A stretch of 64,000 nucleotides of DNA from Longimicrobiales bacterium (GTDB taxonomy: Bacteria > Gemmatimonadota > Gemmatimonadetes > Longimicrobiales > Gaopeijiaceae). This document shows positions 34,058 to 51,022 of the stretch, in pieces. A program made the position numbers and the translations under genes. Positions within the stretch are counted from its first letter, which is position 1; each line of letters opens with the position of its first letter. The notes under the pieces were generated by a model, which had not been told where the DNA came from, searched no databases, and worked only from the letters and a program-made list of their open reading frames with translations. The stretch lies in the NCBI GenBank assembly GCA_965116905.1, contig OZ220732.1, positions 3,328,001-3,392,000 on the forward strand, written 5' to 3'.

Positions 34058-34098
34058 CAAGGAGTTAGTCCGATCTTTCGTTTTGGCATGATCGATGC
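34058..34098 (+). promoter_or_regulatory. Candidate sigma54 promoter with upstream IHF-like site
   Basis: TGGCATGATCGATGC (34084-34098) is GG-N10-GC in a TGGCA..TGC context. CAA-ggag-TTA at 34058-34067 resembles the IHF core. GGAGG RBS and ATG at 34140. Confidence 0.6.
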
Positions 34099-34139
34099 GT
34101 GTCGTTAGCCGCGATTCCCTCTTACGCGGAGGCCGAAAT

Positions 34140-35477
34140 ATGAAGCACGCAAGAGCGATACTCGTGGCGGCGGCGATGCTTGCGGGGCCGGCCTCGGCCG
34201 GTGCTCAGGTGACCAATCACGTTTCCTGGCAAATGGGTCTGGCTGCGGGCGGCTATCCGTCCTGGACCGTCCCCGGAGTCGGGCTCGGTTACGAGCCGTT
34301 CGGCCTGCGCCGGGGGATCGGGTTCGGATTCGGGTTGGGTGTGTCGTTCGGCATTGGCTTCGGATGGTCGGACGACTATTGGGGCGGATACCGACACGGA
34401 TTCCTCGGGGGCTCCCACTGCTGGGATGCCTACTACGATCCATTCCTCTACGATCCGTACTTCGATTGCTGGGGCGTCGGTCCACTCGGTTACAGCCCAT
34501 TCGGATGGTACGGGTGGGACACCCCCTGGTTGAGGCCCTTCGGATTTCTCGGTTGGCCGTCCCGCCGTTATGTCGCCCGGCACTACTACGGGTGGGCGCC
34601 GGGTTGGACCTACGGGTGGGGACCGAGCTGGTCCTATGCGTGGGCGCCGAGTTGGTCGCACTACCCATACGGGTTGTACGGGGGACGGTCCTGGGGATAC
34701 GGAAACTGGGACGACGACTGGCGGTACCGATCCCGTGTCCGCTACGCGAACGATGGCTACGGTGGCCGGTCGCCCCTCTTCGGCCCTCAATTCAAGGAGC
34801 CACCGGTGTACGTGACCGACAACGGTCCGGAGCGCCCGGTGGCCACCCTGAGGCCACGAGGACCCAATGCAACCCTGGACGATATCGACTCCCGGCGCGG
34901 CCGCAGCCGCCTTGGGGACGGGGCAGCCCAATTGCGGGGCAACACGGGGGTGCGCACGGCGCGTCCGCGCAACCAGCCGGGAGCCAGGACGGCGACCCCG
35001 AGGCCATCGACGCGCGGCGCGCCCACCGCGACCAGACGACCCTCACCGCTCCGCGGCACGCCGCCGAAGGTGACCAGGCGTCCGGAAGCCGTGACCACCC
35101 GCCAGCCCACCCGGCGACCGACGCCGCAGACGCGCTCCGCGCCGACGCGGCGGCCACAGCCTTCCGTGCGGACGCCGGCTCCCCGCCGCACGCCGACCAC
35201 GGTGCGCACGTCGCCTCCGAAGCGTCCGCCAGCGGTCCGGACCGCGCCCCGGCGGCCCGCGGTCAGGTCGACCGCGCCTCGCCGCTCGCCGCCGAAGGTA
35301 CGGTCCTCGGCGCCGCGGCGATCGCCGCCCAAGGCTCGTCCGGCACCACGGCGCGCACCGCCCAAGGCCCGTCCAGCGCCACGGCGCGCACCGCCCAAGG
35401 CCCGTCCGGCGCCCAAGCGCCCCCCCTCGAGGGCGCCCGCCAAGCGAAGCGCGCCGCCGCGGCGGCGCGGAGGATGA
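34140..35477 (+). CDS. Secreted low-complexity protein with Gly/Trp/Tyr-rich domain and Arg/Pro-rich repetitive tail
   Basis: Signal peptide ending AGA-Q, GGAGG RBS, and 33-bp repeats encoding RR(S/A)PPKARPAP. Confidence 0.75.
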   Translation: MKHARAILVAAAMLAGPASAGAQVTNHVSWQMGLAAGGYPSWTVPGVGLGYEPFGLRRGIGFGFGLGVSFGIGFGWSDDYWGGYRHGFLGGSHCWDAYYDPFLYDPYFDCWGVGPLGYSPFGWYGWDTPWLRPFGFLGWPSRRYVARHYYGWAPGWTYGWGPSWSYAWAPSWSHYPYGLYGGRSWGYGNWDDDWRYRSRVRYANDGYGGRSPLFGPQFKEPPVYVTDNGPERPVATLRPRGPNATLDDIDSRRGRSRLGDGAAQLRGNTGVRTARPRNQPGARTATPRPSTRGAPTATRRPSPLRGTPPKVTRRPEAVTTRQPTRRPTPQTRSAPTRRPQPSVRTPAPRRTPTTVRTSPPKRPPAVRTAPRRPAVRSTAPRRSPPKVRSSAPRRSPPKARPAPRRAPPKARPAPRRAPPKARPAPKRPPSRAPAKRSAPPRRRGG

Positions 35478-35495: not shown

Positions 35496-36722
35496 TCAGG
35501 AGATCGGCTCGCCGTTCTTGACCAGCGACCGAAGCGGACTGGTTCCCACCCAATAGCACAACTCCGCCACGTCGCGAACATCCCACAGGGCAAAGTCGGC
35601 GCGCATCCCGGGCCGCAGAACGCCCCGGTCGTGCTCCAGCGCCAGGACCTTCGCCGCGGCGGCGGTCAGTCCCAGCAGGGTCTCCTCCGGGGTGAGTCCG
35701 AAGAGGATGCACGCGAGGTTCATGACCGCGCCCACATGGGTGATCGGTGAGGAACCGGGGTTGGCATCCGTGGCGATGGCCATCGTCACGCCGCTTCGCC
35801 GCAGGGCGGTGACGGGCGGCCTGCGGTCCGCCCCCAGAGTGTAGGCCGCGCCGGGAAGGAGGACCGCGCACACATCCGCCTCGGCCATGGCGGCGACGCC
35901 CTGAGGGGAAAGGTACTCCAGGTGGTCGGCGGAGCGGGCGCCCACGGCAGCGGCCAGTGCGCCTCCGCCGAGGTCGGCGAGCTGGTCGGCGTGGAGACGC
36001 CCGTGCAGCCCCGCCCGGGTCCCGGCTTCCAGGATGCGGCGGCTTTCCGAGGGCGTGAAAGCGATGTCCTCGCAGAAGACGTCGATGGCCGTGGCGTGAC
36101 CCTGTTCCAGCGCGGCGGGCAGGATGCGGTCCAGGACCAGGTGGACGTAGTCTTCGCGGCGCCCGGCGTATTCGGGCGGGAGCGCGTGCGCGGCGAGCAG
36201 CGTGGGCGAGATGTCCGCGGGGAGGTGGCCGGAGAGTCCGGCGGCGACATCGAGCATGCGAAGCTCGGTGTCCGGATCCAGTCCGTAGCCTGACTTGACC
36301 TCGATGGTGGTGACGCCCCAGGAGCAGAGTTCACGGCCCCTGGCGACGGCGCCGGCGGTCAGTGCGTCGTGTGTGGCCGCGCGGGTGGCGCGCACCGTCG
36401 ACATGATGCCGCCGCCCGCTCTGGCGATCTCGGCGTAGGACTCGCCCCGCAGCCGACGCCGGAAGTCGTCGGTTCGGTCCCCGCCGAAGACGATGTGGGT
36501 GTGGCAGTCGATGAGACCCGGGGTGAGCCAGGCGCCGTGGCAGCTGACGACGTCCCGGGCCATCTGCGCGTGGCCGGCCGGAAGTTCAGCCTCCCGTCCG
36601 AGCCAGGCGATCCGCCCGCCGGTGGCCGCAATGGCGCCGTCCTCGATCAGTCCCAGCGAGGCATCGGTCATGGTTGCAAGGTTGACGCCGGTCCAGAGTC
36701 GGTCCCAGGGCTTGGCGGGCAT
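35496..36722 (-). CDS. hutI: Imidazolonepropionase
   Basis: PGLIDCHTH, EVKSGYGL, HADQL, SADHLE and TDANPGS. Confidence 0.95.
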   Translation of the reverse strand: MPAKPWDRLWTGVNLATMTDASLGLIEDGAIAATGGRIAWLGREAELPAGHAQMARDVVSCHGAWLTPGLIDCHTHIVFGGDRTDDFRRRLRGESYAEIARAGGGIMSTVRATRAATHDALTAGAVARGRELCSWGVTTIEVKSGYGLDPDTELRMLDVAAGLSGHLPADISPTLLAAHALPPEYAGRREDYVHLVLDRILPAALEQGHATAIDVFCEDIAFTPSESRRILEAGTRAGLHGRLHADQLADLGGGALAAAVGARSADHLEYLSPQGVAAMAEADVCAVLLPGAAYTLGADRRPPVTALRRSGVTMAIATDANPGSSPITHVGAVMNLACILFGLTPEETLLGLTAAAAKVLALEHDRGVLRPGMRADFALWDVRDVAELCYWVGTSPLRSLVKNGEPIS

Positions 36723-36829
36723 GTGGCGGCGGTCCGGTGACGGAGGCTTAGATTGAGCGTCTGGCGCGGCATTGTCGCATGGCCGCGCGCCGTTTCGCAA
36801 CGCAGTCGACCGATCAGCCGAGGAGCACG

Positions 36830-38293
36830 GTGGCCGAGAACACGCTGAACGCAAACTCCGGATACCGCGCCTACCGGTTCGATCGGGTCCTGGTCGGGGA
36901 CGGCTGGCGACGCGATGTCGAGGTCCGGGTGGATGGGGTCGGCCGGATCGCCGAGGTGAGGGCGGGTGTCGAGGAGTCCCGCGGCGAACGGGTGTCGGGG
37001 TGGGCCGTGCCCGGGGTGCCGAACGTACACGGTCACTCGTTTCAGCGCGCCCTGGCCGGGCTCGCGGAGGGACCGGGGCCCGATTCGTTCTGGGGCTGGC
37101 GGGATGCGATGTACTCCTTCCTCGAACGGCTGACGCCCGACGACCTGGAGGCGATCACGACCCACCTCTACGTCGAGCTTCTGAAGGCCGGCTTCACGTG
37201 CGTCGGCGAATTCCACTACCTCCACCGCCCGCCCGGGGGTGGCGCGTACGACGATCCCGCCGAGATGAGCCGGCGCATCCTGGCCGCGGCGCGGACATCG
37301 GGGCTGTGCCTGGTGCACATGCCGGCCGTCTACGAGTCGGGCGGCTTCGGCGGACAGCCGCTCGCGGGCGGTCAGGAGCGATTCCGCATGGACCTGGCGG
37401 GCGCGGTGCGGTTGCACGAGATGTTGGGAAGCGAGGCTCGGGGATCGTCGGTCTCCCTGGGGTGGGCGCTGCACAGCCTGAGGGCGGTGTCGCCCGGGTC
37501 GTTTCGGGAGTTGGCGGCGCTGCTGGCCGGCGATGCGGAAGACGGCGCCCCGCCCGTGCACGTTCACGTGGCCGAACAGCGGCGGGAGGTGCGCGAGTGC
37601 ATCGCCGACCGGGGCGCGCGCCCGGTGGAGTGGCTTCTCGATCACGCGGCCGTCGACGAACGGTGGTGCCTGATCCACGCCACCCACACGACCGAGGCGG
37701 AGCTGGACGGCGTCGCGCGTCGGGGTGCGGTCGTGGGGCTGTGCCCGACCACCGAGGCGAACCTGGGTGACGGGCTGTTTCCTCTGCGCGCCTTCGCGGC
37801 CCGGGGCGGGAGCTTCGCCATCGGCACGGACAGCCACGTGTCGCGCAGCCCGGTCGAGGAACTGCGCCTGCTGGACTACGGACAGCGGCTTCGGTCGGAG
37901 GGCCGTACCGTGTTGGGCGGTGCCGGCGAGGGGGGACCTGGCGGCGAGCCCGGGGATGACGCCACACGGGCGGTCGGAGCCCTGTCCGGGGCGGGCGGCA
38001 CGCTCCTGCGCCACGCCTGGCGGGGCGGATCGCAGGCGCTGGGCGTGGACTGCGGAAGCATCGAGCCCGGGATGCGGGCGGATCTGGCGGTCCTGGACGC
38101 GGACCACCCGGCGCTGGTCGGGCGCCGCGGCCACGCCGTGCTCGATTCGTGGATCTTCTCCGGCACCGACAACCCGGTGCGCGACGTGATGGTCGGCGGA
38201 GAGTGGGTGGTGAGGGATGGCCGTCACCCGCGCGAGGAGGCGGTGCGGCGCGCGTATGCCCGGGCCGTGGAGGGTCTGGCACGCCGCAGATAG
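36830..38293 (+). CDS. hutF: Formimidoylglutamate deiminase
   Basis: NVHGHSFQR, GEFHYLH, HSLRAV, HVHVAEQ and CPTTEANLGDG. AGGAG RBS before GTG. Confidence 0.93.
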   Translation: MAENTLNANSGYRAYRFDRVLVGDGWRRDVEVRVDGVGRIAEVRAGVEESRGERVSGWAVPGVPNVHGHSFQRALAGLAEGPGPDSFWGWRDAMYSFLERLTPDDLEAITTHLYVELLKAGFTCVGEFHYLHRPPGGGAYDDPAEMSRRILAAARTSGLCLVHMPAVYESGGFGGQPLAGGQERFRMDLAGAVRLHEMLGSEARGSSVSLGWALHSLRAVSPGSFRELAALLAGDAEDGAPPVHVHVAEQRREVRECIADRGARPVEWLLDHAAVDERWCLIHATHTTEAELDGVARRGAVVGLCPTTEANLGDGLFPLRAFAARGGSFAIGTDSHVSRSPVEELRLLDYGQRLRSEGRTVLGGAGEGGPGGEPGDDATRAVGALSGAGGTLLRHAWRGGSQALGVDCGSIEPGMRADLAVLDADHPALVGRRGHAVLDSWIFSGTDNPVRDVMVGGEWVVRDGRHPREEAVRRAYARAVEGLARRR

Positions 38294-38359: not shown

Positions 38360-40021
38360 CTACGGCATCGGGATCCGGACGCCCTTGTCGCGCGCGGTCG
38401 CGATGGCTGCCTCGTACCCCGCGTCGGCGTGTCTGGCCACGCCGAGCCCCGGGTCGTTGGTCAGCACCCGCTCGATCCGGGTCCGCATCTCGGGGGTGCC
38501 GTCGGCCACCAGCACCTGTCCCGCGTGCAGCGAGTCCCCGATGCCCACGCCGCCACCGTGGTGGAACGACACCCAGCTCGCGCCGGACGCCGTGTTGAGA
38601 AGCGCATTCAGGACCGGCCAGTCCGCCACGGCGTCGGTGCCGTCCTTCATCGCCTCGGTTTCGCGGTAGGGCGACGCGACCGAGCCCGTGTCGAGGTGAT
38701 CGCGTCCGATCACGATGGGGGCACTGATCTCGCCGCTGGCGACCAGATCGTTCATGGCGACGCCGAACGCCGCCCTCTCCCCCTGCCCCAGCCAGCAGAT
38801 CCGCGACGGCAGCCCCTGGAACGCCACCTGCTCGCGCGCCAGGCGGATCCAGCGGCAGAGATGCTCGTCGCCGGGGAACATTTCCAGCACGAGGTCGTCG
38901 GTCCGGTGGATGTCGGCAGGGTCACCCGAAAGCGCCACCCACCGAAAGGGCCCCTTGCCGAGGCAGAACAGCGGGCGCACATACGCGGGCACGAAGCCCG
39001 GGTAGGCGAAGGCGTCCTCGAAGCCCGCTTCCCGCGCGTAGCCGCGGAGGTTGTTGCCGTAGTCGACCGCCACGGCGCCTCGCGCGGCCATCTCCACGAT
39101 GGCTTCGCAGTGTTGGCGGATCGATGCCATCGCGTGCTGCCGGTATTCGGCTCGATCGCGATTCCGCAAGACGGCGGCCTCATCGATCGAGAAACCGCAA
39201 GGCACGTACCCATCCACCGGATCGTGGGCCGAGGTCTGGTCGGTCACGATGTCGGGCGTCACGCCGCGCCGGACCAGCTCCGGGAGCACGTCGGCGCAGT
39301 TGCGGACCAGCCCCACCGACAGCGCCTCCCCGGCCCCCGCCGCCTCCTGCGCCCAGCCGACCGCCTCGTCGAGATCGTGCGTCATGCGGTCGCAGTAGCG
39401 GGTCTCGATCCGGCGGCGGATGCGCTCGGGGTCCACCTCGACGACGAGGACCGCGGCCCCGTTCATCGTGCCCGCGAGCGGTTGGGCGCCCCCCATGCCC
39501 CCCATGCCCCCCGTGAGGATCCACCGCCCCGCCAGGGTCCCGCCGAAGTGGGTCCGCGCGATGGCGCCGAAGGTCTCGTAGGTGCCCTGCAGGATGCCCT
39601 GCGTACCGATGTAGATCCACGAGCCCGCGGTCATCTGGCCGTACATCATGAGCCCCTTGCGCTCCAGCTCATGAAAGTGCTCCCAGGTGGCCCAGCGGCC
39701 GACCAGGTTCGAATTGGCGATCAGCACGCGGGGGGCGTGGGCGTGGGTGCGGAAGACGCCGACGGGCTTGCCGGACTGCACCAGCAGGGTCTCGTCGTTC
39801 TCGAGCGCCCGAAGAGCCGCAACGATGGCGTCGAAGGCCGCCCAGTTCCGCGCGGCCCGCCCGGTGCCCCCGTAGACCACCAGGTCCTCCGGCTTCTCGG
39901 CCACCTCGGGATCCAGGTTGTTCATGAGCATCCGCAGCGCCGCCTCCTGGGTCCACCCCTTGCAGGTGAGCGTCCCGCCGCGGGGAGCCCGGATCGTGCG
40001 CGTCCGGCCGATGATCGTCAT
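38360..40021 (-). CDS. hutU: Urocanate hydratase
   Basis: [33 protein letters not shown] and GRDHLD. Confidence 0.97.
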
Positions 40022-41586
40022 TGCAGTTCTCCCGTGCGAACCAGTGCCGCGAGCGCCTCCAGATCGTTACCGAGGGGTCTGTCCTCCGTCAGACGCGGGA
40101 CGTGGTTGCGCACGCTCGCCAGTGCGCGTTCCACGCCGACCCCCGCGCGCAGCGGACGGTGGAACTCCACCGCCTGAGCGGCGCACAGGAACTCGGCCGC
40201 AAGCACGATTTCGAGCAGCTCGACGCTCCGCCGCACCTTTCTGGCGGCGGCCATCCCCATGGAGACATGGTCCTCCTGGGCAGCGCTCGTCGACACGGAG
40301 TCGATACTCGCGGGCGTCGCGAGGACGCGCATTTCGGACAGGGCGTCGGCGGCGGTGACCTGCGCGATCATCAGGCCTGACCGGATGCCGGGCCGCGTCG
40401 TAAGGAAGGCCGGGAGCGCGGAGAGGTCGGGATTGAGCAGGCGGTCGATCCGCCGCTCGCAGATCGACGCCATGTCGGCAGCGGCGATGGCAACCAGGTC
40501 CAGGCACTGGGCAACGATTTGCGCGTGGAAGTTGCCGCCGCTGAGCACCACGCCGGGCGCGGCCTCGCCGGGGACGGGTTCGCCGGGGCCGTGCTCGCCG
40601 AGGGGCGCTTGCGGCCGGTCCCCGACAGCCTCGCCCGGCAGGACGAGCGGGTTGTCCGTGGTCGAATTCGCCTCGGTGCTCAGGATGCGGTGCGCATAGC
40701 CGCACGCCTCCCTCGCGGCCCCGTGTACCTGCGGCATGCAGCGCAGCGAGTACGCGTCCTGCACGCGCGGGTCGCCGGTGCGATGCGACTCCCGGATCCC
40801 GGAGCCGTGGAGCAGCGCCCACAGCCGCCGGGCGGTCGCGATCTGGCCCGGGTGCGGACGGGCGGCGTGGATCTCGGGACGGAACGGATCGGGCGTCCCC
40901 CTGAGCCCCTCCAGCGACATGGCTCCCGCGACGTCGGCCGCGTCGAGAGCTCGCTCGAAGCGCCGTAGCGCGAGGGCCCCGATTCCGGTCGTGGCCTGCG
41001 TGCCGTTGATCAGCGCCACCGCCTCCTTCTCGGACAGATCGAGCGGCTCGATGCCGACGGCGCGCAGCATCTCGGTGGCGTCTCCCAATTCGCCGTCCCG
41101 CTCGGCCCGGCCCTCCCCCGTCAGGGCAAGCGCCACGTGCGACAGGGGCGCCAGGTCCCCGCTGGCGCCGACCGAACCGATCTCCGGAACCTCCGGATGG
41201 ACCCCGTGATTGAGGAGATCGAGCAGCCGCTCCACGACGACGAGCCGGCAACCCGACTGGCCGCGCGCCAGCGTATTGGCACGGAGCAGCATGATCGCCC
41301 GGACCTCCGCCACCGGCAGCCGGCGGCCGACTCCGGCGGCGTGGCTGCGGACCATGTTGTGCTGAAGGGCACGCTGGTCAGCGGGGGAGATCCGCACGTC
41401 GGCGAGCCTGCCGAACCCCGTGTTCACGCCGTAGATCGGCCGGCCGCTGCCAAGAAGCTCTTCCAGGATGTCGCGCGAACGGCGTACCCGTCCGGCAGCT
41501 TCGGGGTGGAGGCGCACCGGGCGCCGATCGCACGCCACGGCCTCCAGCTCCGCCAGCGTCAGCCCCTGTCCGTCGATCGTGATCAT
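40018..41586 (-). CDS. hutH: Histidine ammonia-lyase
   Basis: [19 protein letters not shown]-forming [14 protein letters not shown] and GGNFH. Pro/Gly-rich insertion before GGNFH. Confidence 0.96.
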
Positions 41587-42203
41587 GGGCGGTCGTCCGC
41601 GTTGTCGTGCCTTGTTCGCCGCCCGGCATCGAATTCCTCGCGGGTCAACGTGTGGCGCGCGTCCTCCCACTCCTCCTCCAGCTCGACCCCGAGGCCGTCG
41701 GCCAGACGGTTCACGTAGTTGTAGTAGCACGCTACCTGGCAGATATCGAGGACGGCACGGTCGTCGAACCCCGCATCCTTCAGCCGCTCGACATCGGCCG
41801 CGGCCATCGCTCCCGGATCCCGCGTCAGCTTGACCGCGTAGTCGAGCATCGCGGCGTCGGCCGCAGCCAGCGTGGCCGGCCGCCTCCGCCGTGCCAGCGC
41901 ACGGCCAAGATCGGCACTGCCCGTGAGTCGACGGAGTCCCGCCCCGTGGTGGTTGATTCAGTAGAAGCAGTCGTTCTCAACCGATACCGCCACCGCGATC
42001 ATCTCCCTCTGGACCCGCGACAGGGGGGACGGACCCGCCATCAGATGCCTGTACAGGTCGTAGTGGTGCTCCATTGTCGGCGGATTCAGCGAGTGGATGC
42101 GCAGAATGTTGTCCAGCCGCCCGCGGGGGTCGGAGTACCGGTCGTAGAGCGTGGCCAGCCGCTCGCCCGCGTCGCCGCGCCCCACGTATCTGATGTGTGC
42201 CAT
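41583..42203 (-). CDS. AhpD-like/carboxymuconolactone decarboxylase family selenoprotein (CxxU; UGA at 41958-41960)
   Basis: ORFs 41958-42203 and 41583-41849 share a frame. Reading through TGA gives ...REMIAVAVSVENDCFY-U-INHHGAGLRRLTG...AMLDYAVKLT...YYNYVNRLADGLG, an intact ~206-aa family member. Confidence 0.88.
41931..41947 (-). promoter_or_regulatory. Putative bacterial SECIS hairpin
   Basis: ACGGGG-CGGGA-CUCCGU: 6-bp stem with one G-U pair and a G-containing 5-nt loop starting 16 nt after the UGA. Confidence 0.7.
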
Positions 42204-44932: not shown

Positions 44933-44970
44933 GCCCACGGGCACGCGCTCCCGCGGGCACGCACTTATAG

Positions 44971-45042
<72 letters not shown>

Positions 45043-45154
45043 GACAGCAAAGGGGCGTCCGGCACCGGCCGTCGCCCCCTCCGGCGATTCGGCTGTCAAA
45101 GCTGCCCGCCCGCATCCGTGGCGAGGCATCCCTGCACCCGACTGCCGTCGTCAG

Positions 45155-45227
<73 letters not shown>

Positions 45228-47150: not shown

Positions 47151-48233
47151 TCATCGTGCGACGAGTTCGGTCTCTGCGATCACCAGGGCTGCTGGTCCGT
47201 CATTGAGCCCTTCCATGACCAGCCGGTCACCGTCGAAGAAACTGGCTCCGGTCCGCGGAATCCAGGCCCATTGGCTGCCCTCCGGTCTCCTCACCGGAAT
47301 CGCGCGCAGAGTGTTAAGGTCCAGGACGAAGCCAAGGGTGTCAACATAGGTGATCCGCACGAAAAGCCGGCCGTCCTCCAACACCTGTAGCGAGAGCGCC
47401 AACTGGGATCCGAGGACTCTTGCCGCTCCTCCCATCGCCTCAATCCGGTTGGCGTCACGCTCCAGCAGCGACGTGCGCATGGGCTCGGGCAGATAGGCCA
47501 ATCCCACCAGATCTCCGACACTGTCATAGCTGGCAAGAACCAGTTGGCTGCCATCCAGGACGTGCACTCGGCCATCGGGTGTTGTCGCCACCAGGTCGAT
47601 AGGTAGCTGGAACACATCCGGTTCGCCCCGGAACCCCACGGGTACCTCGGCAAAGGCCGTCTGCCCAGACTCGGTCACGCGACCCAGGTAATGGTCGGAG
47701 AACTCCATCCCCACGACGAGAAGGCCGAGTTCGGGATGCACCGCTGCATCGCTCAAGTAACCCCCCAACTGGTGCATGCGGACAAAATCACCGCGGGAAG
47801 TCAGGTAGGTCACGCGCGCGTGGATTTGGTCCACTACGGCAATCTGGTCCCCATTCCTGATCAGCACCCCCGGCAACTGGTATTCGCCTGGGCCCTCGCC
47901 GTGCCTTCCCACCGTTCGCACGGGGTTCAAATTCCTGTCCATGAAGACCAGCCGCTGATTCAGGCCATCGGCGGCGACGTACCCTCCGTCGGCATTCTCC
48001 ACCACGGCCGTGACAGAGCCGAACAGCGCCCGCTCGTCATCGATGTCCAACTGTGCGATCAAGCCGCGAATGGCGTACGCGGAGTCGCTCTCCGTGAAGA
48101 CCGCGATGTCGGCGACGGAATCGGAAGACGGGGCATTGCACGCCGCCAGCACCAGGAACGGGAATCCAGCGGCGACCAGCCTTCCAGCATGCCCGCGGGA
48201 CCAATCTCGGCGTCTCGTCACGCTCTCGGCCAT
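47151..48233 (-). CDS. 6-bladed beta-propeller (NHL-like) lipoprotein, copy 2
   Basis: LAAC lipobox and VGRHGEGPGEY motif. Paralog of the adjacent gene. Confidence 0.78.
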   Translation of the reverse strand: MAESVTRRRDWSRGHAGRLVAAGFPFLVLAACNAPSSDSVADIAVFTESDSAYAIRGLIAQLDIDDERALFGSVTAVVENADGGYVAADGLNQRLVFMDRNLNPVRTVGRHGEGPGEYQLPGVLIRNGDQIAVVDQIHARVTYLTSRGDFVRMHQLGGYLSDAAVHPELGLLVVGMEFSDHYLGRVTESGQTAFAEVPVGFRGEPDVFQLPIDLVATTPDGRVHVLDGSQLVLASYDSVGDLVGLAYLPEPMRTSLLERDANRIEAMGGAARVLGSQLALSLQVLEDGRLFVRITYVDTLGFVLDLNTLRAIPVRRPEGSQWAWIPRTGASFFDGDRLVMEGLNDGPAALVIAETELVAR

Positions 48234-48261
48234 GTGCACCTGCCCGGATACGCGCGGGGTT

Positions 48262-49326
48262 TCATCTTGCAACGAGCTCGGTCTCTGCGATCACCAGGGC
48301 GGCTGGTCCGTCCTCCAGCCCTTCCACGACCAGTCGTTTGCCGTCAAAGAGGCTGATCGCGGTCCGCCGCAACCAACGCCATTCCGGACCCTCCGGCACC
48401 CTCACCGGCGTCGCGCGTAGGGAGTCGGGGTCCAGGACGAAACCCATGGCGTCCAGATAGGTGATCCGCAAGAAGAGTCGGCGGTCCCCCAACGCATGAA
48501 GCGCGGTCCCCAATTCCGACCCCAGGACCACCGTCGGTCCGCCCAATGCCTCCGTCGTTTCAGCGTCCCGCTCCAGCAAATGCACGCGCATTTCCTGTGG
48601 CAGGTACGCCACGCCCAGCAGATGTCCAGCACTGTCATAGCTGACCAATGCCAGGTGACGGCCGTCAAACACGTGAATCTTGCCGTCTGGCGTTCCCTCC
48701 ACGAGATCGTTGGGCAGTTGAAAGACAGCGGGGTCAGCGCGGAACTCGACCGGCTTCGCAGCGAAGGGAGTCTGTTCCGATCCGATCACGCGGCTCAGGT
48801 AGTGGCCGGAGAACTCCATCCCCGCGACCAGGAGTCCGAGCTCGGGATGAATGGCCATATCCCGGATGAACCCTCCAATTTGTTGCATGCTTACGAACTC
48901 GCCGCTGGCAGTGAGGTGGGTTACGCGCGCGTGTCCTTCGTCCAGCACTACGATCTCATCCTCATCGCGCACCATCACCCTCGGAAACTGGTATTCGCCG
49001 GGGCCCTCACCGTGCCTTCCCACTGTTCGCACAGGGTTGAGGCTGCGGTCCATGAAGACCAGCCTCTGGTTCAAGCCGTCGGCGGCAACGTACCCTCCGT
49101 CGGCGTTCTCCACCACGGCGGCGACAGAACCGAACATCGCCCGCTCGTCATTGATGTCCAACTGTGCGATCAGGCCCCGAATGACGTAAGCGGAATCGCT
49201 CTCGGTGAAGCGGGCAAACGCGCTATCGGGAGCCTCAGACGTCGCATCGCACGACGTCAGGAACGGGAGTCCCGCGGTAACAAGCAGGACTCCCGTCCGG
49301 ACACCCGCCCAAGCCCAGCGATCCAT
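48262..49326 (-). CDS. 6-bladed beta-propeller (NHL-like) lipoprotein, copy 1
   Basis: LTSC lipobox and VGRHGEGPGEY motif. Shares the identical C-terminus GPAALVIAETELVAR with its neighbour. Confidence 0.78.
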   Translation of the reverse strand: MDRWAWAGVRTGVLLVTAGLPFLTSCDATSEAPDSAFARFTESDSAYVIRGLIAQLDINDERAMFGSVAAVVENADGGYVAADGLNQRLVFMDRSLNPVRTVGRHGEGPGEYQFPRVMVRDEDEIVVLDEGHARVTHLTASGEFVSMQQIGGFIRDMAIHPELGLLVAGMEFSGHYLSRVIGSEQTPFAAKPVEFRADPAVFQLPNDLVEGTPDGKIHVFDGRHLALVSYDSAGHLLGVAYLPQEMRVHLLERDAETTEALGGPTVVLGSELGTALHALGDRRLFLRITYLDAMGFVLDPDSLRATPVRVPEGPEWRWLRRTAISLFDGKRLVVEGLEDGPAALVIAETELVAR

Positions 49327-49354
49327 CAGGACGTTTGGCAATGCGGCGATCCCA

Positions 49355-51022
49355 CTATACCGCCCCTCCCAACAGCTCTCGCGCGTGCTCCAGTGACGGA
49401 CCCGACTCCGGGTCCCCACCCAGCATCCGGGCGATCTCCCCGACTCTTTCCTCCCGGGTGCCCACACGCCGCAAGACGCTGACCGCCGCACCATCCACCG
49501 CACGCTTCTCGACCACAAGATGGTTGGACGCGCGCGCCGCGACCCGCGCGAGATGAGTGACCACGAGCACCTGCCGTCCGCGGGCCACGGCTGCGAGCCG
49601 GTCCGCCACCCTGGCAGCGACGCCGCCTCCGACGCCGGCATCCACTTCGTCGAACACCAGGGTGGGAAGATCGTCGATGCCGGCCAGCACGGAGTTGAGC
49701 GCGAGCATGACGCGGGACATCTCGCCGCCGGAAGCGATCTGCGAGAGAGGGGCCGGCGGAAACCCGGGGTTCATCGTGGCCATGAAGCGAACGCGTTCCA
49801 GTCCGCCGGGCGACGGCCCGGCCCGGTCCTCGAAGTGCACCTCCAGGCGCCCGCCCTCCAGCCCGAGTCCGGGGAAGACGGCCTCCGCCTCGGCCGAAAA
49901 CCGGGCGGCCGCTTCCCGCCGCCGCTGCGACAGTTCTTCCGCACGGGCTCGCCAGGCGGCATCGGCCCGGTCCAGCTCGGCCCGCAGGGCGCCGGCGTCC
50001 ATGTCGGCGGTCTCGAGTTCGTCCAGTTCGCGGCGCAGGGTCTCGCCACGCTCGATGACCACGGCCAGCGAGGGGCCGTACTTGCGCTCGAGCCGCTGGA
50101 TCAGGGCCTGCCGCTCGCGAACGGACTCGAGCCGGGCCGGGTCGTGGTCGATGCCCGCCGCGTAGTCCCCAAGCGCGCCGGCCGCATCCGCCACCTGGTG
50201 ATACGCGTCGTCGAGCGCCGCCGCGCTGGCCCCGAGCGCCGGGTCCATCTCGCTCAGGCGCCGCACACGGGCCGCCGAATCCGCGAGCCGGTCCGCGACG
50301 GCGTCCTCGCCCGCGTGGAGAAGCTCGTGCAGCGCGTGACCCTCCCGCGCGAGCGTGTCGGCGTGCGCGAGCCGGTTCGCCTCGATGCGCAGTTCCTCGT
50401 CCTCGCCCGCGTGGAGCTTCGCGCCGACGATCTCGCCGAGCTGGAAGCGGATGAAGTCGGCGCGGGTCTCCAGCTCCCCGCGCCGCTCCTCCAGCGATGC
50501 CAGCCGACTCCCGAGTTCCGCCGCCCGACGGTAGCCGTCCGCAACCTCCACGGCCAACTCGGCGCACCCTCCGAAGGCGTCCAGCACCTGCCGCTGGAAG
50601 CCCGGCGACAGGAGCCGCTGATGCTCGTGCTGCCCGTGGATGTCGACCAGCAGCGACCCGATGCGGCGCAGCATTCCGGCGGTCGCGGGCGAGCCGTTCA
50701 CCCAGCCCCGGCTTCGGCCCTCGGCGCGAACCTCGCGGCGCAGCACCAGGTGGTCGTCGTCACACTCCAGGCCCAATTCGGCCAGCAGTTCCGTGACGGC
50801 GTCGAGGTCGCCGACGTCCACCACGCCCTCGACGAGCGCGCGGGCTTCCCCGGCGCGCACCATTCCCGACGAGGCGCGGCCACCCAGCAGAACCTCCAAA
50901 GCGTCCACCACGATGGACTTGCCGGCCCCGGTTTCCCCCGAAAGCACATTCAGTCCTGGTTCAAGAGAAACACGCAAGTCCCTGAGGACAGCGACGTTGC
51001 TTATTCTGAGTTCAATGAACAT
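49355..51022 (-). CDS. recN: DNA repair protein RecN
   Basis: GETGAGKS, DIHGQHEHQ, ASGGEMSR and FDEVDAGVGG. Confidence 0.96.
   Translation of the reverse strand: MFIELRISNVAVLRDLRVSLEPGLNVLSGETGAGKSIVVDALEVLLGGRASSGMVRAGEARALVEGVVDVGDLDAVTELLAELGLECDDDHLVLRREVRAEGRSRGWVNGSPATAGMLRRIGSLLVDIHGQHEHQRLLSPGFQRQVLDAFGGCAELAVEVADGYRRAAELGSRLASLEERRGELETRADFIRFQLGEIVGAKLHAGEDEELRIEANRLAHADTLAREGHALHELLHAGEDAVADRLADSAARVRRLSEMDPALGASAAALDDAYHQVADAAGALGDYAAGIDHDPARLESVRERQALIQRLERKYGPSLAVVIERGETLRRELDELETADMDAGALRAELDRADAAWRARAEELSQRRREAAARFSAEAEAVFPGLGLEGGRLEVHFEDRAGPSPGGLERVRFMATMNPGFPPAPLSQIASGGEMSRVMLALNSVLAGIDDLPTLVFDEVDAGVGGGVAARVADRLAAVARGRQVLVVTHLARVAARASNHLVVEKRAVDGAAVSVLRRVGTREERVGEIARMLGGDPESGPSLEHARELLGGAV

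Follow-up and report, generated by a model that had tools for sequence, protein, structure and literature searches.

A probable AhpD-like selenoprotein gene overlapping hutH in a Longimicrobiales bacterium

The locus and its reading frame

The window analysed here is a stretch of 64,000 nucleotides from a Longimicrobiales bacterium (contig OZ220732.1, positions 3,328,001 to 3,392,000, GenBank assembly GCA_965116905.1). The list of open reading frames (ORFs) holds two entries in one minus-strand frame, at 42203-41958 (81 aa) and 41849-41583 (88 aa), and between the TGA that ends the first and the ATG of the second (41849) lie 108 nt (36 codons) with no stop. Translation of 42203-41586 with TGA read as U yields 206 residues; there is one internal UGA, at codon 82 (41958..41960, minus strand), in the motif NDCFY-U-INHH; with its terminal TGA, the resulting AhpD-like (TIGR01926) gene occupies 41583..42203 (minus strand). 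The initial annotation had proposed exactly this arrangement, namely two small ORFs sharing a frame, a single TGA where the second Cys of the family CxxC motif should be, 36 open intervening codons and a product of about 206 residues, and the sequence bears it out on every point. It had noted neither the strand nor the overlap with hutH described next.

The stop of the selenoprotein gene overlaps the start of hutH in an ATGA at 41583..41586 (minus strand). hutH encodes histidine ammonia-lyase (40018..41586, minus strand; TIGR01225, 644 bits vs a cut-off of 539) and is the sole copy found in the genome; hutU, for urocanate hydratase (38360..40021, minus strand; TIGR01228, 950 bits vs 375), follows with a further 4-nt overlap. 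Beyond it lie hutF, for formimidoylglutamate deiminase (36779..38293, plus strand; TIGR02022, 522 bits vs 413), and hutI, for imidazolonepropionase (35496..36854, minus strand; TIGR01224, 434 bits vs 298), which matches from residue 70 and whose true start is probably downstream of the ORF start. Ergothioneine-type catabolism is ruled out, given that the scores of the neighbours are those of ordinary HutH and HutU; hutU also falls under the cut-offs of the thiourocanate hydratase models. Elsewhere in the window we noted tRNA-Cys and tRNA-Gly genes just past a choice-of-anchor B gene (44970-45042 and 45154-45227, minus strand), two tandem similar ORFs downstream of recN that share about 330-370 residues (47151-48272 and 48262-49641, minus strand), and a 460-aa ORF (34095-35477, plus strand) whose product begins with a signal-like segment, is rich in Trp, Tyr and Gly in one part, ends in a repetitive tail rich in Arg and Pro and has no NCBIfam match.

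Scored against TIGR01926 (curated cut-off 81.8 bits), the read-through protein reaches 137.1 bits over residues 7-175 and is over the cut-off, whereas its halves, at 42.3 and 74.6 bits, are each under it when taken alone. The read-through protein also aligns across the UGA with the solved Cys proteins 3c1l, 2pfx and 6k40, with a Cys opposite the UGA and homology on both sides, which is the outcome that the initial annotation had expected of a tblastn-type comparison. Its wider assignment to the AhpD/CMD family holds for the AhpD-like part (TIGR01926) and not for the CMD decarboxylases. When 20 genus orthologs are aligned without gaps, with the TGA as anchor, the pooled pairwise dN/dS comes to 0.212 upstream of the TGA, 0.215 downstream of it and 0.315 in the 36 linking codons. 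The two ORFs are thus very likely one gene, with the internal UGA read as selenocysteine (Sec).

Conservation of the UGA and a candidate SECIS element

The TGA stands at the same codon in 20/20 genus orthologs. A match was present in 25 of the 41 genomes in a first draw of relatives and, at E 1e-20, in 59 of the 151 genomes of an order-wide draw, whose 74 match rows comprise 61 with the TGA and 13 without a stop. After duplicate loci were collapsed and L045, L079 and L080, which do not cover the motif, were dropped, 83 distinct loci remained, of which 70 carry TGA and 13 a Cys codon (TGC or TGT), with no TGG, TAA or TAG; since these homologs are related by descent, the counts do not represent independent events. 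selA is present in 31/31 TGA-bearing genomes of one set and in 25/25 of the other sets (one partial, at a contig end), and among 12 genomes with the Cys form, several of them 85-93% complete, it was found in five and not found in seven. A midpoint-rooted FastTree of 81 proteins, from which L038 and L077 were left out as they run off their contigs, separates the 68 Sec forms as a group (support 0.84) from the 13 Cys forms; every gene linked to hutH belongs to a single subclade of this tree, with modest support. Two further kinds of variation were seen. Loci L126 and L127 (genomes G155 and G060) form a third TGA subfamily, with the motif CRYU-IDSHAEFL and a hairpin in the same register but of different sequence and with a GUU loop, and in L044/L055 (G028:C95) and L056 (G011:C3) an insertion located behind the catalytic helix divides the tblastn match into two parts.

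The genome, which is 97% complete, encodes the machinery for Sec insertion, with selA (498 bits), selB (308), selD (373) and a tRNA-Sec (79.7; anticodon UCA) all over cut-off, and selD has an in-frame TGA of its own. The initial annotation had anticipated selA, selB, selC and selD elsewhere in the genome, and had counted the lack of such machinery, together with relatives all carrying Cys or Trp, against its own reading; what we find is the machinery itself and relatives that have either TGA or Cys and in no case Trp. In a rough gene model of the genome TGA is the commonest ordinary stop (1440/2142 counted), and tRNA-Trp has the anticodon CCA. There is hence no change of the genetic code, as TGA is the main ordinary stop and tRNA-Trp reads CCA. 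The genome holds at least nine candidate selenoproteins, counting two AhpD-like genes. The second of these (G000:C1:3674067-3674651, plus strand; locus L050:6068-6652) encodes 194 aa with the motif CFYU-TQAH and scores 122 bits against TIGR01926; it has its own conserved 7-bp hairpin and no adjacent hutH. The other in-frame TGA genes on G000:C1 lie at 641802 (+), 3656670 (+), 1254176 (-), 169688 (+), 3903242 (-), 3912652 (-) and 1303595-1304035 (-), and correspond to SelD, a formate dehydrogenase alpha subunit (UHAP), two OsmC-like proteins (GU-L) and three AhpC/TSA-like proteins; the gene at 169688 gave no NCBIfam hit at 1e-5 and is labelled OsmC-like solely for its resemblance to the other such gene. 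A genome scan listed 75 candidates, most of which look like noise (gene junctions and opposite-strand frames); seven of the 75 and the AhpD-like paralog were scanned further. The genome also carries 17 co-directional tRNA genes at G000:C1:1296478-1298432, largely duplicate isoacceptors found elsewhere, an array that may be part of a mobile element.

Downstream of the UGA, a hairpin ACGGGG-CGGGA-CUCCGU at 41947-41931 (41931..41947, minus strand) has a 6-bp stem and a 5-nt loop, CGGGA, with G at loop position 2, and 16 nt lie between the UGA and the loop, as the initial annotation had described. The bacterial SECIS (bSECIS) model described in PMC13188914 has a loop of 3-9 nt, a stem of 4-16 bp, a G in the first two loop positions and a spacing of 16-37 nt, and this geometry accommodates the hairpin (5 nt, 6 bp and 16 nt). 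The consensus model in the same source has a free energy of -7.5 kcal/mol or lower; the hairpin has -6.4 kcal/mol bare and -7.2 in a 30-nt window, and a 42-nt window folds differently. The hairpin is absent from the minimum free energy fold of 50-100-nt regions, and the stability of its region is no better than that of shuffles (z +0.5 for 61 nt, +0.9 for 50 nt).

Conservation is more informative. The five core pairs are present in 58/58 TGA genes of the subfamily to which this gene belongs (subfamily A) vs 1/13 Cys genes in the same register; the initial annotation had held that a non-conserved hairpin would count against it, and the hairpin is conserved. Codon usage in these 58 genes follows the pairing. 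The Gly codon at +5 is GGG in 33 and GGA in 25, which keeps a G-U or A-U pair, and never GGC or GGT, although these two make up 55% of the other Gly codons in these genes; codon +4 is CAC in 58/58, compared with an even split of the preceding His codon (CAC 10, CAT 10) in 20 orthologs, and Leu +8 is CTC in 57/58. Random synonymous coding of the same peptide yields the five pairs in 16% of draws, a figure that is not a P value because kin are not independent. No two-sided compensatory change was found in the subfamily-A hairpin, 11 of 31 distinct rows do not keep the outer A-U pair, and the subfamily-A shuffle controls (500/500) carry no information, since every pair has one invariant side. A loose hairpin rule is also passed by 6/13 Cys genes, and therefore the fixed-register comparison alone discriminates. 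In the paralogous subfamily B, a separate 7-bp hairpin, with its loop 24 nt after the UGA, is 100% paired in seven distinct rows and shows one compensatory change, C-G to U-A, which 68/500 shuffles match. As a single sequence the hairpin is thus marginal, and it exceeds chance by its conservation only; on geometry and conservation together it is likely to be a bacterial SECIS element.

Family, fold and predicted chemistry

The gene is a member of an already catalogued family of AhpD-like selenoproteins. Such proteins with a CxxU motif were predicted in 2005 from Sargasso Sea data (27 sequences; PMC1088965), are the fourth most numerous family in the table of the GOS survey (299; PMC2398784), are placed by a 2026 review (PMC13188914; TIGR01926, CxxU) among the families 'predicted with high confidence', as opposed to experimentally verified ones, and form a browsable family in BSepDB (PMC13326102). 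The statement in the initial annotation that AhpD-like selenoproteins are known from environmental genomes agrees with these sources (PMC1088965, PMC2398784). The gene shares with the AhpD-like 1 family (COG2128/TIGR01926, CxxU) the domain model, the CxxU motif and, in all likelihood, a bacterial SECIS within the coding region, and differs from it in its host lineage (Gemmatimonadota, Longimicrobiales) and in the hutH overlap; none of the papers listed by our literature searches deals with this lineage's copy or with the link to hutH. The selenoprotein model NF041238 (AhpD_rel_CFYUT) has the same CFYU motif but spans 357 positions, and the protein, at 58.2 bits, is under its cut-off of 175 (70 bits for the paralog).

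An AlphaFold2 model built from a 12-row alignment (pLDDT 86.5) matches 3c1l with a TM of about 0.87. The all-helical fold is shared with Mlr4105 (3c1l), 2pfx and Deinococcus radiodurans AhpD (6k40) at TM 0.82-0.88, and the relay E-x11-C-x-Y-C-x3-H is common to these proteins and Pseudomonas aeruginosa PA0269, all of them Cys proteins of 23-37% identity that have a second Cys where the gene described here has Sec. Within the 81 aligned proteins E67, Y81 and H86 are invariant (81/81); C79 was part of the search pattern and is hence outside this count. Sec82 occupies the position of AhpD Cys133, in AhpD the residue activated by the His-Glu relay. In Mycobacterium tuberculosis AhpD the relay comprises Glu118, Cys130, His132 (Tyr in PA0269), Cys133 and His137, and PA0269 has weak H2O2-reducing activity (PMC3141380). 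This Glu-Cys-(His/Tyr)-Cys-His proton relay is matched by E67, C79, Y81, U82 and H86, with Glu118, Cys130, Cys133 and His137 corresponding to E67, C79, U82 and H86 at the same spacing. M. tuberculosis AhpD itself is a reductase of AhpC and differs in being a weak sequence match (E 0.003) and in that the gene here has no adjacent ahpC.

From the relay match and the AhpD mechanism we infer a selenolate nucleophile, with Cys79 as resolving residue, that acts in peroxide or disulfide reduction. In the proposed course, the UGA of this mRNA would be recoded by the genome's own SelA, SelB, SelD and tRNA-Sec acting with the hairpin; by analogy with the family mechanism, the Glu67-His86 relay would then activate Sec82 (the Cys133 position of M. 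tuberculosis AhpD), a peroxide or the disulfide of a partner would be reduced by the Sec82 selenolate, with Cys79 resolving the intermediate to a selenenyl-sulfide, and a cellular reductant would recycle it. The 206-residue product is accordingly a predicted thiol/selenol oxidoreductase or peroxidase. The genome has no AhpC above the TIGR03137 cut-off, and the classical pairing of AhpD with AhpC is therefore not applicable; none is adjacent either, as the neighbours are hutH and the choice-of-anchor B gene, and the genome has 10 AhpC/TSA-family genes.

Position ahead of hutH and alternative readings

Of 58 distinct subfamily-A loci, 38 have hutH next to the selenoprotein gene: 33 show the -4 overlap exactly, three a possible in-frame NTGA start and two a gap of about 24 nt. 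Of the other 20, 16 have at least 1 kb of downstream sequence without hutH and four have too little sequence. The part of the protein after Sec ranges from 114 to 165 codons across loci where the hutH junction is kept. Most likely, the position ahead of hutH-hutU is a lineage-specific operon arrangement and not a step of histidine breakdown. In RNA run X1 one contig spans hutU, hutH, the selenoprotein gene and the divergent neighbour; given its flat depth, the contig may stem from DNA carry-over and is evidence of neither a transcript nor an operon. Among the relatives, locus L131 (G004:C28:19049-23629) lacks the selenoprotein gene and retains hutH-hutU and the divergent choice-of-anchor B gene, and L130 has a tRNA-like sequence, similar to those in the window, directly upstream of hutH.

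Compatible with the recoded enzyme is an added role in which the UGA acts as a selenium gate. Since the stop of the gene and the start of hutH overlap, ribosomes would get to hutH with good efficiency only if the UGA had been recoded, and selenium shortage would lower HutH and HutU through lost translational coupling and polarity. Such selenium-dependent coupling is plausible because the hutH overlap is recurrent and both elements have precedents: coupling is most efficient at spacings of -4 to +3 (PMC12548453), and without selenium fdhF-Sec transcripts are truncated past the UGA in Treponema primitia (PMC3892789). Adjacency in 38/58 loci, 33 with the exact -4, despite tails of 114-165 codons, points the same way, as does the failure to find a sigma-70-like promoter or terminator around the junction, in a search of low power in G+C-rich DNA with 0 expected in shuffles. 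However, -4 is the commonest prokaryotic spacing (PMC12548453); here it accounts for about 34% of close co-directional neighbours (581/1734, rough gene model), and the hutH-hutU junction is itself a -4 overlap. In addition, a hutH match is missing in 4/5 tested genomes with an unlinked ortholog, hutH-hutU is kept in 2/5 genomes without the ortholog, and in several orthologs hutH is preceded by an SD-like, purine-rich stretch. On balance we regard the gate as unlikely. If true, the selenoprotein gene would be a selenium-sensing leader that gates histidine catabolism, a pathway without a selenoenzyme of its own, and would show in simple form how a trace element can govern an unrelated catabolic pathway by way of stop-codon recoding. 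The boldest form of the proposal would have the Sec enzyme also convert halogenated or thio-histidines of a sponge host into HutH substrate.

The chemistry invoked there has also to be weighed in its own right, as a Sec-dependent reductive dehalogenase or thio-histidine reductase resembling the debrominase Bmp8 that would prepare halogenated or sulfur-modified histidine for HutH. We considered it on account of the match to the AhpD fold of Bmp8, which also has a CxxC motif (6ohi/6ohj; TM 0.76-0.77, profile E 5e-6), the sponge metagenome label of the RNA runs for this stretch and the report of monobromohistidine in sponge skeleton (PMC4145324); that the gene precedes hutH in many loci would fit as well. 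Yet Bmp8 is distant, at 17-19% identity vs 35-37% for 3c1l-type proteins and with a profile score of 29.5 bits to 6ohi vs 165.6 to 3c1l. Its Cys82, presumably the attacking residue of Bmp8, appears, judging by which ranges align and by the reduced score of a C82A variant, to correspond to Cys79 here, which would place Sec at the other Cys position. The gene also persists without hutH, and the neighbours look like standard HutH and HutU and do not reach the cut-offs of the thiourocanate hydratase models. Such a role is quite improbable. Least probable are two separate genes, a nonsense-mutated pseudogene or a UGA read as Trp or Cys: the ATG of the second ORF (41849) and the unexceptional stability of the hairpin would fit such readings, but 70 loci, with identities as low as about 40%, share this TGA as their catalytic codon and none has TAA, TAG or TGG there, purifying selection acts on the 36 codons that link the ORFs (dN/dS 0.32) and the Met of the second ORF aligns with an internal Met of Cys homologs, while TGA as the main ordinary stop and a tRNA-Trp with anticodon CCA, with no code change, speak against the last.

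Taken as a whole, a recoded 206-residue AhpD-like enzyme, predicted to be an oxidoreductase or peroxidase and placed ahead of hutH most likely by a lineage-specific operon arrangement, is the explanation in which we have high confidence. A gene that ORF callers had split in two is hereby corrected, and a well-sampled collection of natural variants, 70 loci with Sec and 13 with Cys, is added to a predicted family that is abundant in marine metagenomes.
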